A DNA stretch of 64,000 nucleotides from an uncultured delta proteobacterium (GTDB taxonomy: Bacteria > Desulfobacterota > RBG-13-43-22): contig CAVUPH010000015.1 of assembly GCA_963743305.1 (NCBI GenBank), positions 1 through 64,000 of the forward strand, written 5' to 3'. The notes beneath the pieces were generated by a model that saw nothing but the letters and a program-made list of their open reading frames with translations, had not been told where the DNA came from and did no database searches. The translations under genes were made by a program, and so were the position numbers. This document shows positions 5,601 to 9,815 of this stretch, in pieces. Numbering within the stretch: position 1 is the stretch's first letter; each line of letters starts with the position of its first letter.

Positions 5601-6122
5601 TTATTTAGGTTTGGCCCGTTGGTATTGAGGAGGCCAGGGGATATCCACCTTAAGCGTCTGGGCAGCCTGGAGCGACCAATAAGGATCCCGCAACAGTTCT
5701 CGGGCGATAAGTATCGCATCGGCCTGACCGGTGGATAGAATCTGTTCGGCTTGGACGGGGTGGGTGATTAAACCCACCGCTCCGGTGGCTATCCCAACCT
5801 TAGAACGGATCTCCGCGGAGAAGGGGGTCTGATATCCGGGCCCGACGGGTATTTTGGCCGAGGGCACCAGACCACCGCTGGAGCAGTCAATCAGATCAAC
5901 TCCGATCTCCTTGAGCCGGTAGCCAAGCTCCAGCGATTGAGACAAATCCCAGCCTCCTTTGACCCAGTCGGTGCAGGAGATCCGGACCAAGAGAGGAAAT
6001 TCTGCCGGCCAGCTTTCCCGAACGGCCCGTACAACCTGCAAGGGAAAACGCATTCGGTTTTGAAGATTGCCTCCGTATTCATCCGTCCTGCGGTTGGACA
6101 GGGGGGAAAGAAACTCATGAGG
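5601..6122 (-). pseudogene. NADH:flavin oxidoreductase (old yellow enzyme, YqjM/NamA-like), C-terminal half only
   Basis: [44 protein letters not shown]; upstream sequence is not OYE-like. Confidence 0.85.
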
Positions 6123-6216
6123 ATTATAGAATGAGATGGGGGAACGGCGCAAGGACGAAAAGGTAAAGAGTTTTAGGTTGGGGTGAAGGTCACAGGTTCT
6201 TCAACCGGCGAAATTT

Positions 6217-7689
6217 TTAGAAGCCGAGCGCCTTTTCGAGGTTGCGGATCAGCTCCCGGGGAGTAGGTTCCATCCAGCGCTGCCCCAGAACCAGAAAAAA
6301 AATATAAAAACAAAGGATGCCCAGCGCCGAAAAGATGAGACCGGCCAGCGAGCTGATTTGGGGAAGCGCACCCCGAATTCCGGTTATCAGCCAGACCGAA
6401 AAGAGGCAGGCCAAGGTCGGGATCAGTACCTGGCGAAATACCGCAGACCAGGGTAGAGAAAGCAAGCGCCCGATAATTCCGTAACGGACCAATTGCATGA
6501 ATACGCCAATCACGGCCATTAATATCGCTACCCCCCGCGCGCCTTGCCAGTAGGTCAGGGGAATGACTCCCGCGCCGAAAAGAACGGCCATCACTAAAAC
6601 CGTCTGAACCCAGAGCTTCAGCCGGCCCAGAGCTTGAAAAAGGCCTCCCAAAAAACCGGCGAATAGGGAGCAGACCCCCCAGATCGCCAGCCAGGGGACC
6701 AGCGGTAGAGCAGCCAGCCACTGATTTCCCAGCACGAGCGGGTAAAAATCGAAAGCGCAAACACAAACCAGACCCGCCATGCCCAAAGTGATCACGGAAA
6801 TCAAGCCGAAGGATTGCCGAAAGGCTTTTTCCAGACGGTCCCGATCCCGCTGGAGGTGGCTAAATACCGGAAAGGCCAGTTGGGCGACGACTCCACCGAT
6901 TTCGGTGGTGACCAGCGTACAGATCAAAAAGGTCATCTGGTAAAGGGCCAAGGCCTTAACATCCAGGAGACGTCCGATTACCCAGTCTCCCCCTCTCATA
7001 AAAATGTAGGCGACAAGGCAATTGATAAATATCAAGAAACCAAAGCGGCGAAGGTCCTTTAGCGGCCGCCAATCAAAGGAAAGTCCCAGACTGCCGGGTT
7101 CCGAGAAAAGATGCGCGCCCAGGGTAGTGACCGCCGCCCCGCTGAGCCCGGCCAGCACTAGAGCCCAGGCATCCGGACGAAGATAGGCCATAGCCAGGCC
7201 CACACCCAGACTGATCAGGGATCCCCCGGTCTGCAGGGCCACGACCGGAGCGAACCTAAGATCTTTCCGGGCCAGGGTTTCAAAAAGAGGTTCAAACCCC
7301 TTAATGACCGGGAGCAGCGCCATCACCCGAAGAATGGCCAGCGATTGAGGACTGTCAAAAAAGGCGGCCAGCCACGGCGCGCCCAGGAATACGATTCCTC
7401 CCAGCAGTAAACCGCGGACGATCTGAAGCGTTCGAACCGGCAAAAGATAGGCCGAGAGGTCACCCGAGCGTTGAATCAGGGCCGACCGGAGACCCGTCTC
7501 CGAAAATTGATCCAGGGCCGTCAGGGCCAGGGTGGCCACGGCATAAACACCCATTTCATCCGGACCAAGCCAGCGGGCGATGGTCAGCATCCGCGCCAGA
7601 TCGAACCCGCGGGTCAAAAGGCGCGCGGCCGTCAGGGACAGCCCCCCGCGGAGGAGGCGCCCGGAAAGATCTGGGACGATGGCGTTCAA
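6217..7689 (-). CDS. Wzx/WzxC-type polysaccharide flippase (MOP superfamily)
   Basis: ARWLGPDEMGVYA, GLRSALIQ, FPVFSHLQ and many transmembrane segments. Confidence 0.88.
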   Translation of the reverse strand: MNAIVPDLSGRLLRGGLSLTAARLLTRGFDLARMLTIARWLGPDEMGVYAVATLALTALDQFSETGLRSALIQRSGDLSAYLLPVRTLQIVRGLLLGGIVFLGAPWLAAFFDSPQSLAILRVMALLPVIKGFEPLFETLARKDLRFAPVVALQTGGSLISLGVGLAMAYLRPDAWALVLAGLSGAAVTTLGAHLFSEPGSLGLSFDWRPLKDLRRFGFLIFINCLVAYIFMRGGDWVIGRLLDVKALALYQMTFLICTLVTTEIGGVVAQLAFPVFSHLQRDRDRLEKAFRQSFGLISVITLGMAGLVCVCAFDFYPLVLGNQWLAALPLVPWLAIWGVCSLFAGFLGGLFQALGRLKLWVQTVLVMAVLFGAGVIPLTYWQGARGVAILMAVIGVFMQLVRYGIIGRLLSLPWSAVFRQVLIPTLACLFSVWLITGIRGALPQISSLAGLIFSALGILCFYIFFLVLGQRWMEPTPRELIRNLEKALGF

Positions 7690-7719
7690 AACATTATTCG
7701 TTGAGGCCGAGAGCTCTTT

Positions 7720-8673
7720 TTATTCCAATTTTTTTAGACTTAAGGATTCCACCGGAAAGCCGCTGTCCAGCCAGGCCTGCAGGCCGCCGGCCAACACGCG
7801 AACCTTTTCTATTCCCCGCCGTTTCATCAATTGCGCCACCCGGGCGCTGGAAGCTTCGTTGGGTCAGGAGCAATATAAAATAACCTCCCGGTCCAGAGGG
7901 ATCCGCTGGATATGGTGGCGCACGCCATTCAACGGCAGATGAAAAGCACCGGGGAGGTGTTCCGGTTTCGTTAGGAGGTCCAGGTCCGTTCGAACATCCA
8001 GGATCAGCGGACGGTCTTCGTTTTCCAATTTTTCCTTGACCTCCTCCGCTGAAATGCGCAACAGTAGAAATTGCCTCATGAGCCATTGTCGTTGCCAGAG
8101 TTTCCAGATAATGGTCCCCGCCAGTCCGCCCAGGAGGAGGACCCCGACGCCATTCCCCAATCTCAGGAATTGATTGGCCATCCATTCCAGTTGATCGCTG
8201 AATTCATATCCCAATCCCACCAGGACGATTACCCAGAGGATGATTCCCAGGGTATCCCAGAATATAAACCGCTGGAGCCGCATCCGAAAAATCCCGGCCA
8301 AGGGAGGGGTGATAATGTTGACCCCGGGCAGGAATTTGGCCACCAGGAGTGACCGGACCCCTTGTCGAGAAAAAATATCCTTGGCCCGGCCGACACAGGT
8401 GTCGGGGCTTAGGGACATTCGGCAAAGAAAAGGGATGACCTTCTCTCCCCGCCACTTTCCCAGGGAATACCAACTCAAATCGGCGATCAGCGCGGCGGTC
8501 CAGATCACCAGGAAAATCGGCAGGATTTCCAAGCTTCCGTAACCGACCAGGGCCCCGGCAGCCAGCAAAATAGGCGCAGACGGGATGGGGAGACCAAATT
8601 GCTCCAAAAGCACCCAAAAAAATAGCACCGCGTACCCGTGCTGAACAAAAAAAGATAGAAGTACTTTCACCAT
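7720..8673 (-). CDS. DedA/VTT-rhodanese fusion selenoprotein (UGA read as Sec at 7864-7866)
   Basis: DedA motifs (EQFGLPIP, AKFLPG) then a rhodanese domain (ILDVR, HLPGA, VILYCS-UGA-PNEASSARVA...VLAGGLQAW...FPVE). The frame stays open to TAA at 7720-7722. Confidence 0.88.
7833..7847 (-). promoter_or_regulatory. Candidate bacterial SECIS hairpin
   Basis: GCGCC-CGGGU-GGCGC stem-loop with a G-rich loop, starting 16 nt after the UGA. Confidence 0.6.
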
Positions 8674-8852
8674 AAAAAGACACACCCGGCAAAATAGTTA
8701 CCCGACAGTATAGAAGAATCATTTTGTTTTGGGTAAGAAATTTTCAAACGGAGGATCTAATCCCCTCATCCATTTTAATCAGTAGATCTTTTGTCGCCAT
8801 TAAGGTATATAAAGACTAAATTTCAAACCTAGAAAATTAAAAGAGGTGCCTT

Positions 8853-9815
8853 ATGCGGTATAAAAACACGTCACCGAAACTGTGGGTTCTGGTTTTAATG
8901 AGCGCTTTCATTTTCCTTTGGGCTTCCAGTGAAGTCTTGGCCCGGGCGGGAGGGGGACGGTCCGGAGGATTTCGCGGGAGCCGGTCCTTTTCCGCGCCTC
9001 GGAGCCTAAGCCCGTCCCCACTGAATCCAAGCGCTCCTTCTTCGGGGATGTTCAACCAATCCAATCCGATGGCGCCTTCCACGGGTAGTCCGTTACTGCG
9101 GGGGTTGGCGGGAGGCCTGGCCGGGGGGTTCCTCGGAAGTATGCTCTTTGGCGGCCTGGGTCATGGCGCCATGGGTTCCGGCGGCGGTGGAGGCGGAATC
9201 GGTTTCCTGGAAATCGTGCTCCTGGGGATCGGGGCTTTCCTCTTATTCCGGTTTATCCGCGGTCGTAAAAAGGCCGCCGCTTCCCCGTTCCAGCAGACCA
9301 ATTACGTGCCACCCCCCTATTCCCAGGATCCTAATCCGCCTCAATCCCCCACCGCGGATCAAACGGTCGAAGCCGGAATCGGACATATCCAGTCCATGGA
9401 CGCCCGCTTCAATCCCGCGGATTTCAAAGACTGGGTCCAGGACCTTTTCTTTAAGATCCAGGCGGCCTGGACCAATCAGGACCTGGCCCCCCTGACTCCT
9501 TTTTTAGCTCCGGAGATCCAAGCCATGTTCTCCCAGGACCTGGAAGGTCAAAAATCCCAAGGCCGGATCAATCGTCTGGAAAATATTGCCGTCCGTTCGG
9601 TGGATATCACCGAGGCCTGGCAGGAGGAAGGGAAAGACTTTATCACCATCCTCTTTTACGCCAATTTGCTGGATTACCTGGAAGACAAAAAGACCGGAGC
9701 CGTGGTTTCCGGAAGCAAGACCGAACCGGTCAAATTCCGGGAATACTGGACCTTTGTAAGGCCCGTTGGCGGCCAGGGTAATTGGCAGTTGAGCGCTATC
9801 CAACAGGAAAGTTAA
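8853..9815 (+). CDS. Tim44-domain protein
   Basis: Signal peptide, ARAGGGRSGG, GLAGGLAGGFLGSML, FFKIQAAW, FREYWTF..WQLSAIQQ. Confidence 0.9.
   Translation: MRYKNTSPKLWVLVLMSAFIFLWASSEVLARAGGGRSGGFRGSRSFSAPRSLSPSPLNPSAPSSGMFNQSNPMAPSTGSPLLRGLAGGLAGGFLGSMLFGGLGHGAMGSGGGGGGIGFLEIVLLGIGAFLLFRFIRGRKKAAASPFQQTNYVPPPYSQDPNPPQSPTADQTVEAGIGHIQSMDARFNPADFKDWVQDLFFKIQAAWTNQDLAPLTPFLAPEIQAMFSQDLEGQKSQGRINRLENIAVRSVDITEAWQEEGKDFITILFYANLLDYLEDKKTGAVVSGSKTEPVKFREYWTFVRPVGGQGNWQLSAIQQES

Follow-up and report, generated by a model that had tools for sequence, protein, structure and literature searches.

We analyzed 64,000 nucleotides (nt) of contig CAVUPH010000015.1 from an uncultured delta proteobacterium (GenBank assembly GCA_963743305.1), hereafter called the window, and report on a minus-strand gene in which an in-frame TGA codon cuts the annotated reading frame short. 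The gene, at 8673–7720 (−), very likely encodes one 317-amino-acid (aa) inner-membrane selenoprotein that joins an N-terminal DedA/VTT transporter-type domain to a single C-terminal rhodanese domain. Comparison with its homologs gives us high confidence that the UGA at codon 270 is recoded as selenocysteine (Sec), i.e., that this is a real Sec-encoding gene. A first-pass annotation of the window had proposed a hidden selenoprotein at this place, with DedA fused to a rhodanese carrying a C-S-U-P-N-E loop, and this proposal is supported by the homologs, the related TGA loci, the hairpin downstream of the codon, and the presence of selB, selC, and selD in the genome.

Evidence on the in-frame UGA codon

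With translation table 11, the minus-strand open reading frame (ORF) runs from GTG 8685 (or ATG 8673) to the TGA at 7866–7864 and ends in ...EVILYCS*. Past this TGA, the frame stays open for 47 more codons, which read PNEASSARVAQLMKRRGIEKVRVLAGGLQAWLDSGFPVESLSLKKLE, up to a TAA at 7722–7720. When translation starts at ATG 8673, a start backed by a database cluster (P0001, 269 aa, 98% identical), the read-through product is 317 residues long, with the TGA at position 270 (U270). Residues are numbered from this ATG throughout; counted from GTG 8685, the UGA residue is number 274. The Pfam VTT/DedA family PF09335 matches aa 30–156 (E = 1.3e-16; 61.6 bits against a cut-off of 33.9), and the Pfam rhodanese family PF00581 matches aa 208–302 over profile positions 1–100 of 102 (E = 2.6e-14; 53.9 bits). 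Because this profile can be filled only by reading past the TGA, the rhodanese fold is complete only with read-through. The earlier description of an ORF that ends at YCS* and of a frame that runs on to complete the rhodanese therefore stands, as does that of a GCGCC-CGGGU-GGCGC hairpin 16 nt after the UGA, the putative Sec insertion sequence (SECIS). The features of the gene are as follows.

7720..8673, minus strand: predicted DedA–rhodanese selenoprotein coding sequence (CDS) of 317 codons and a TAA stop; codon 270 is an in-frame TGA
7864..7866, minus strand: UGA codon 270 (U270), at the rhodanese catalytic Cys position according to homolog codons and the alignments to 3iwh and 6mxv
7870..7872, minus strand: Cys268 of the CxU motif, probable resolving or partner residue, invariant in alignment A1
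7833..7847, minus strand: putative SECIS hairpin GCGCC/GGCGC with loop CGGGU, 16 nt past the UGA, supported by comparative data
8206..8586, minus strand: DedA/VTT membrane domain PF09335, aa 30–156 (Pfam); the whole membrane part spans about aa 1–203
8395..8424, minus strand: Cys84-x8-Cys93 pair in a basic loop between the DedA halves, specific to the rhodanese-fused subfamily
7768..8052, minus strand: rhodanese domain PF00581, aa 208–302 (Pfam, alignments, structure model, and Foldseek)

A protein search returned 1016 matches, of which the best 120 homologs were analyzed. Among these, 46 end exactly after [YF]C-x, at the residue before the window TGA, and the other 74 run on with Cys at the Sec position. 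The motif is [YF]CxCP[NDS][ED] in 72 of the continuing homologs, and the remaining two read YCTCPTE and CCSCPNE. We also scanned genomes, with one genome per species, and found the fusion in at least 589 confirmed relatives. At the best 80 loci, codon 270 is TGA in 54 and TGC or TGT in 26; the strict motif yielded 53 TGA and 26 TGC/TGT loci, and one locus (L042) was added as TGA by a slightly looser motif. After the TGA, the related loci continue with PNEA[ST]SA.... Two earlier claims, that DedA–rhodanese fusions carry YCxCPNE and that homologs should have Cys opposite the UGA, thus agree with the data (74 of 120 proteins, mostly YCxCPNE, and 26 of 80 loci). The TGA forms occur in Acidobacteriota, Nitrospirota, Rokubacteria, Methylomirabilota, Myxococcota, Chloroflexota, Verrucomicrobiota, Dormibacterota, and metagenome-assembled genomes labeled "delta proteobacteria". 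Among 20 relatives of the window genome, nine carry the gene: six copies contain a single TGA, two lack it, and the last is partial because a contig end cuts it.

A quick maximum-likelihood tree, left unrooted, was calculated from 88 rows (60 Sec and 28 Cys forms; one of 89 loci had no motif match and was left out). The tree requires at least six changes between Sec and Cys, of which the well-supported branches force at least three, against about 24 with shuffled labels, and the Cys forms nest among the TGA forms. Since multiple changes are needed, Sec and Cys forms must have replaced each other several times; we make no claim on the direction of switching because the tree is unrooted. These results strongly support the view that Sec and Cys versions of the DedA–rhodanese protein are interchangeable and that the family occurs in both versions across many phyla.

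The TGA is also intact in contigs assembled from three other sequencing runs (X1 record 1, X3 record 14, and X10 record 5). The first of these, 329 nt long, differs from the window at 11 other positions and has the same TGA, and the last, which spans the TGA, comes from an RNA library. TGC or TGT in other reads had been named beforehand as a sign against recoding, and the independent metagenome contigs keep TGA. Given these independent contigs, the TGA is not an assembly error. The shares in the sequencing runs were small (at most 0.25), and no conclusion on habitat was drawn from them.

The hairpin lies at 7847–7833, inside the codons for S-A-R-V-A, and in most relatives a sixth pair (7848/7832) is added by a flanking A/U. 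According to the Sargasso Sea selenoproteome paper (PMC1088965), a hallmark of the bacterial SECIS is a small apical loop with a guanosine, and the window hairpin is likewise a stem-loop that follows the UGA directly on its 3' side and whose small loop contains G. In an ungapped alignment of 61 TGA forms (58 distinct sequences), pairing is intact in 98.6% of the 348 cells of the six-pair stem; what variation there is consists of one-sided G-U changes and a lone compensatory change from C-G to U-A in L115. Codon usage in the 54 TGA forms is narrow within the hairpin: Ser at +6 is AGC in 53 of 54, and Ala is GCC at +7 and GCG at +10 in all 54, while the flanking codons +1, +3, +4, +5, +12, and +13 use several synonyms. 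In the Cys forms, by comparison, the alanine at +7 is encoded by GCC in 13 of 26 and that at +10 by GCG in 11 of 25. The local hairpin energy is −11.8 kcal/mol in the TGA forms versus −6.6 kcal/mol in the Cys forms (Mann–Whitney p = 1.5e-9, a value that overstates the case because the sequences are kin).

Further comparative evidence comes from two standalone paralogs in the same genome that belong to the NCBIfam family NF041203 (rhodanese_LYCAU). Both have the hairpin at an equal distance from the UGA with the loop CGGGU unchanged, and their stems, GCGCU/AGCGC and GUGCC/GGCAC, each differ from the GCGCC/GGCGC of the window by a synonymous, mutually compensating pair. Moreover, some contigs from other organisms (records 6, 10, and 11) align to the window solely over 7832–7867, i.e., from the TGA through the end of the hairpin. 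The conserved pairing, the codon constraint confined to TGA forms, and the compensation in the paralogs uphold the proposal of a SECIS directly 3' of the UGA. The data strongly support a mechanism in which UGA270 is decoded as Sec by SelB and tRNA-Sec, recruited by this small GC-rich hairpin with its CGGGU loop.

The own assembly of the organism, 90% complete in 43 contigs, contains tRNA-Sec (selC; 75 bits, called tRNA-SeC with anticodon tca by ARAGORN), selB (363 bits against a cut-off of 242), and selD (210 + 170 bits; G000:C26:75850-76774, L011 and L012), which has its own Sec in AAGUASK. The first-pass annotation had called for selA, selB, selC, and selD in the genome, and the last three are present, while selA was not found in this assembly with PF03841 or TIGR00474. 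Among the 20 relatives, 18 carry selA, including all three genomes of the same genus and all 12 of the same family. Because the relatives carry the gene and the assembly is 90% complete, a gap in the assembly is the likeliest reason for its absence. The genome also holds a 92-nt tRNA-Sec-like gene (50.8 bits; G000:C14:98758-100799, L002, L010, and L018) that ARAGORN calls tRNA-Cys with anticodon GCA. Immediately downstream of it lies another selB-like gene (261 bits, with the C-terminal wing matched separately). Mukai et al. (PMC5389517) reported such a selC*/selB* arrangement in Syntrophobacterales and Desulfobacterales.

The following points weigh against recoding. The folding energy of the 67-nt stretch that begins with the UGA is −15.3 kcal/mol, compared with −17.1 ± 2.9 kcal/mol for shuffled sequences (z = +0.63), and 144 of 200 shuffles are at least as stable, so that the hairpin taken alone is within chance; because single-sequence folding does no better than shuffles, its significance derives only from the comparative evidence. 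An Rfam scan of 7600–8000 at E ≤ 10 yielded no family that models this element, just two matches to eukaryotic families at the level of chance. In the fusion family itself, the stem is nearly invariant, with one compensatory cell, and the argument from covariation therefore draws mostly on the paralogs and on the codon contrast between Sec and Cys forms; the sequences compared for this constraint are, moreover, related to each other. The RNA-library contig indicates presence in that library, not translation, and DNA carry-over is possible. As for the machinery, selA was not found, and the selD match falls into two reading frames on either side of a seven-G run, so the machinery is not intact as assembled; the split looks like a homopolymer assembly error, but could be a real frameshift.

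We weighed these points in two alternative accounts of the codon. If the TGA were a genuine stop, the gene product would be a DedA protein of 269 aa whose partial rhodanese is crippled, and the sequence downstream would be a decaying remnant or the product of an assembly error. Gene callers and the public annotation agree with this account, 46 of the 120 homologs being deposited as proteins of about 268 aa (e.g., the NCBI "VTT domain-containing protein"), and the missing selA, the apparent selD frameshift, and a hairpin that alone is within chance are all compatible with it. Nevertheless, we consider it extremely improbable, given a conserved 47-codon frame that stays open, a TGA at the identical codon in 54 of 80 loci from many phyla, a hairpin-preserving synonymous constraint that is confined to the TGA forms, independent contigs that keep the TGA, and Cys forms that nest among the TGA forms. 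In the other account, the UGA is recoded by way of the same hairpin, but Cys is inserted wholly or partly, either by the SelB paralog with the tRNA-Sec-like tRNA-Cys or through tRNA-Sec mischarged under selenium scarcity. The genome does have the selC*/selB* arrangement, decoding of opal as Cys was shown for UCA-anticodon forms of selC* (PMC5389517), and the Cys forms of the protein evidently work in nature. The selC*-like tRNA of this genome, however, has the anticodon GCA instead of UCA and, for that reason, should not read UGA; the same paper (PMC5389517) gives the role of GCA-type selC* as unknown, and a canonical tRNA-Sec (UCA) and selB are present. We thus regard insertion of Cys as highly unlikely, and recoding as Sec remains our preferred reading of the codon.

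The rhodanese and DedA domains

In ungapped HMMER alignments to the single-domain rhodaneses 3iwh and 6mxv, U270 falls on the active-site Cys. The alignment to 3iwh was checked column by column (motif ...YYIVCAGGVRSA), and 6mxv agrees with it. In this register, C268 aligns to the last residue of the preceding strand and the usual six-residue loop, U-P-N-E-A-[S/T], is retained, whereas in the alignments to 3tp9 and 6pfz it is C268 that is matched, at the cost of a two-residue gap. It is strongly supported that Sec270 sits where the rhodanese fold canonically has its catalytic Cys, as the first residue of the U-P-N-E-A-S loop. The AF2 structure model (mean pLDDT 90.3, pTM 0.81) places a strand at 264–267, then C268-S269-U270, and then a helix at 271–285. 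A Foldseek search of the PDB with this model matched rhodanese domains, with 3tp9 at a root-mean-square deviation of 1.5 Å over 105 columns and 36% identity; solely the rhodanese part was matched, and no solved DedA-like chain was returned. The closest solved sequences and structures include 3tp9, 6pfz, 3ict/3icr, 3nt6/3nta, 8a56, and 5ve3. The best NCBIfam match of the window rhodanese is NF041203, at 79.6 bits (75.1 in the genome scan), which is below the cut-off of 115.

A classical rhodanese loop, of the form CRxGx[RT], is six residues long and includes basic residues. In the window protein, U-P-N-E-A-S keeps this length and ends in S/T, but it lacks a basic residue and carries a Glu. C268 is invariant in alignment A1, and in one of the same-genome paralogs, which reads LYUAU, the corresponding position is itself a UGA. 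Since this paralog has UGA at both positions, 268 and 270 appear to act as a pair, which may form a selenenylsulfide in the window protein and a diselenide in the LYUAU paralog. The two standalone genes, which both score above the NF041203 cut-off, lie at G000:C37:59141-59509 (L120, 154 bits) and G000:C6:223730-224092 (L119, 162 bits). One reads FYCAUPTEATSARVAQ and the other LYUAUQDEATSARVAQ; in the latter, the two UGA codons are six nt apart and share one hairpin, and the U-x-U site could form a diselenide. Both paralogs have signal-like hydrophobic N-termini.

For the membrane half, we aligned the window protein to Escherichia coli YqjA (K-12 record). E39 of YqjA is kept as E24 and R130 is conservatively replaced by K113, while D51 corresponds to A33, R136 to N119, N101 to C84, and Y110 to C93. 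The charged residues E39, D51, R130, and R136 are reported to be essential in YqjA/YghB-type DedA proteins that act as flippases of undecaprenyl phosphate (UndP), and two of these four, D51 and R136, are thus replaced. R130 and R136 are the basic residues that bind the UndP phosphate according to Todor et al. (PMC10127716). Among the best 120 homologs, the R130 position is K in 119, and at the R136 position all 120 have one of N, S, G, A, T, and Q and never R or K. The Cys-x8-Cys (CX8C) pair is found in all 120 as well, with the strict pattern in 115 and A or T at one inner position in five. The NCBIfam equivalog models for UptA gave 52.3 and 44.3 bits, far from their cut-offs of 300 and 250. 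From these substitutions and scores, the DedA part is probably not a canonical UndP flippase.

The lysine and arginine counts of the loops suggest a topology. Three segments on one side of the membrane are rich in K/R, namely 72–108 with eight (this segment holds the CX8C pair), 130–135 with three, and 191–207, the linker to the rhodanese, with four; segment 158–173 on the opposite side has one K/R and two D/E. By the positive-inside rule, these charge counts place both the CX8C loop and the rhodanese in the cytoplasm, and we infer that the rhodanese domain and the Cys84-x8-Cys93 loop face that side.

Neighboring genes and proposed function

Two further features lie next to the gene.

6217..7689, minus strand: Wzx/MOP-family flippase gene (Polysacc_synt_3), a neighbor not demonstrably part of the system
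8718..8747, minus strand: weak sigma-70-like promoter match upstream of the ATG, at chance level

The flippase-family gene (E = 2.7e-58) begins 30 nt past the TAA, in agreement with the spacing of about 30 bp given earlier. A scan upstream of the ATG found one sigma-70-like site where 1.7 are expected by chance, and it is not functional evidence. A terminator-like hairpin with a T-rich tail was seen inside the CDS just 5' of the UGA, at 7884–7899 (−); the terminator scan gave fewer sites than chance expects, and this hairpin is probably meaningless. Following the Wzx gene directly, the ORF at 5601–6152 (−) aligns solely with the C-terminal half of Old Yellow Enzyme (OYE) family proteins (Oxidored_FMN profile positions 177–339 of 342) and looks like a truncated gene or fragment. 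The divergent gene at 8853–9815 (+) encodes a Tim44-like domain (3.8e-41) along with an N-terminal part rich in Gly; a Tim44-like neighbor is also present in G002 and beside the partial copy in G007.

We then compared the neighborhoods of the relatives. Among 10 loci of relatives, examined with 1.5-kb flanks and with some short contigs, the Wzx gene is adjacent in the own genome, G002, and G001 only, which belong to the same genus, and by tblastn it was near the gene in none of the 80 wider loci with 3-kb flanks. When the window Wzx, Tim44-like, OYE-fragment, sigma-54 activator, and DUF2799 proteins were all searched against these 80 loci by tblastn, just two matches were obtained, both to the sigma-54 activator. 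In contrast to the Wzx gene, a same-strand nitroreductase-family gene lies upstream in 18 of the 75 ORFs examined (15 Sec-form and three Cys-form, mostly Acidobacteriota), and the genes downstream on the same strand include an FMN reductase in four and a receiver–Pyr_redox_2 protein (pyridine-nucleotide-disulfide oxidoreductase) in three of 74 loci; because the loci are related, these counts are not independent. Where there is any theme among the recurrent neighbors, it suggests flavin-dependent redox enzymes and not envelope synthesis. The nitroreductase gene, in the roughly 600 nt ahead of the fusion gene, encodes about 200 aa and abuts or overlaps the start of the fusion, and the pair looks like a two-gene operon (L025, L030, L036, L039, L047, L052, L055, L062, L063, L065, L066, L073–L075, L077, L081, L094, and L098). 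A convergent dCTP deaminase gene, downstream in 17 of 74 loci, is on the opposite strand and appears to reflect synteny in Acidobacteriota and not a functional link.

As the function that we favor, we tentatively propose a chalcogen-handling model, to which we give somewhat less than even chances. The first-pass annotation had suggested a CxU sulfur/selenium transferase or redox module, which likewise stays tentative. In this model, the DedA domain would bind or conduct a small anionic sulfur or selenium species (a persulfide or polysulfide, thiosulfate, or a selenite-derived species), which the CX8C loop and the CxU site would capture, transfer, or reduce. Sec270 would attack the sulfane-sulfur or selenium donor, or another oxidized substrate, and Cys268 would resolve the Sec270 adduct as a selenenylsulfide, so that the domain would cycle through a redox or chalcogen-transfer intermediate. 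The CX8C loop, predicted on the same membrane side, could relay substrate from the DedA domain or re-reduce the CxU site, and separate soluble flavoproteins or thiol reductants would re-reduce the site and close the cycle. Persulfide or polysulfide chemistry is indicated because the nearest solved rhodanese domains belong to persulfide dioxygenase fusions and to CoA-persulfide or persulfide reductases. Selenium species are also candidate substrates, since a link to the uptake of selenite has been reported for a Ralstonia metallidurans DedA protein, as cited in a review (PMC11422209). The stronger version, in which the DedA domain is a sulfur/selenium conduit hard-wired to a selenoenzyme and the CX8C and CxU sites form an intramolecular relay to flavoproteins, is speculative and, in our estimation, rather unlikely. 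If true, it would mean a transporter fused to a Sec enzyme and a new substrate class for the DedA superfamily, and the protein might even be a selenium-acquisition device that itself requires selenium.

Some observations do not favor this function and its cytoplasmic setting. The active-site loop, with its Glu and without a basic residue, is unlike that of thiosulfate sulfurtransferases; the flavoprotein neighbors come mostly from Acidobacteriota and are absent from the window; and the topology has charge counts as its only basis, while the signal-like N-termini of the paralogs make an extracytoplasmic site possible for this rhodanese type. The principal competing function is that of a flippase for UndP or another lipid, which would work with the adjacent Wzx protein and be gated by the Sec-rhodanese as a redox sensor; a link of the gene to lipid-carrier handling through Wzx had also been suggested in the first-pass annotation. 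The protein falls into the COG0586-type group, whose characterized members are UndP flippases and in which rhodanese fusions were noted (PMC10127716), and its best DedA-type NCBIfam matches are UptA and PRK10847. The equivalents of E39 and R130 are kept as E24 and K113, and no convincing terminator separates the gene from the Wzx gene 30 nt downstream. On the other hand, the equivalents of D51 and R136 are replaced, the UptA scores are far under their cut-offs, the adjacency to Wzx is limited to one genus and found at none of the 80 wider loci, and the recurrent neighbors elsewhere are flavoproteins, not cell-envelope genes. The lipid-carrier link through Wzx is thus not supported by these comparisons, and we judge a flippase role to be quite unlikely. 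Beyond the chalcogen-handling and flippase models, the rest of the probability was assigned to functions that we have not yet thought of.

Annotation and relation to known systems

The fusion is widespread in soil and sediment bacteria and is systematically mis-annotated. The forms of about 268 aa are named "membrane protein DedA..." or "VTT domain-containing protein", while the full-length Cys forms are named ".../rhodanese-related sulfurtransferase"; from these deposited names and lengths, which lack the rhodanese, it follows that pipelines truncate the TGA-form genes. TGA-form proteins thus stand in public records without their catalytic domain. With at least 589 species-representative genomes, and TGA in two thirds of the best 80 loci, this is an annotation issue of some scale, and as the family is common in soil Acidobacteriota, it also bears on the use of trace selenium in soils. 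The protein would carry Sec at the rhodanese catalytic position, welded to a DedA membrane domain. The switching between Sec and Cys, the invariant CX8C pair, and the loss of a phosphate-binding Arg together suggest a DedA branch devoted to redox or chalcogen chemistry and not to lipid-carrier recycling.

Part of this is already known. Rhodanese selenoproteins do appear in published surveys, as had been stated at the outset, and those of the CxU type have been catalogued. DedA–rhodanese fusions of the Cys type are in print without an assigned function in these accounts (PMC10127716; PA1209 in PMC12893004), and how the rhodanese domain connects to UndP is described as "unclear" in the 2023 DedA paper (PMC10127716). 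In the literature consulted, we found no description of a Sec-form DedA–rhodanese fusion, although supplementary tables of selenoproteome surveys may list the family, and the word "DedA" is absent from two selenoproteome reviews. What is new here is the DedA-fused Sec branch.

Among known systems, the standalone rhodaneses of NF041203 share the LYC-x-U motif (ILYCSU in the window), the downstream ...EA[ST]SARVA, the SECIS position, and the loop CGGGU. They are proteins of about 126 aa, whereas the window domain is the C-terminus of a DedA protein with a CX8C loop. The Cys-type fusions (PF09335 + PF00581), such as Pseudomonas aeruginosa PA1209 (PMC12893004 and PMC10127716; compared here by description), have the same two-domain architecture, but the catalytic residue of the window protein would be a UGA-encoded Sec with a SECIS. 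The UndP flippases UptA and YghB/YqjA share the VTT/DedA fold with two re-entrant loops, as well as E39 and, as a lysine in the window protein, R130. YqjA differs in lacking the CX8C insert and in having D51 and R136 where the window protein has A33 and N119, and the UptA scores are low.

CoADR-RHD, the NADH-dependent persulfide reductase, the CoA-persulfide reductase, and the persulfide dioxygenase–rhodanese fusions are among the closest solved relatives, and a parallel is seen in the flavoprotein genes beside the fusion elsewhere. The rhodaneses of all these proteins are soluble and fused directly to a redox enzyme, in contrast to the window protein, whose partner is of the membrane transporter type and for which any reductase would be a separate gene. 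In thiosulfate uptake by YeeE/YedE–YeeD (TusA-like), a membrane conduit with conserved Cys residues hands sulfur to a cytoplasmic carrier domain, and YeeE/YedE is itself listed as a selenoprotein family. Although the folds are unrelated, the concept of a conduit that delivers to a carrier is shared and provides a working analogy for the DedA–rhodanese fusion.

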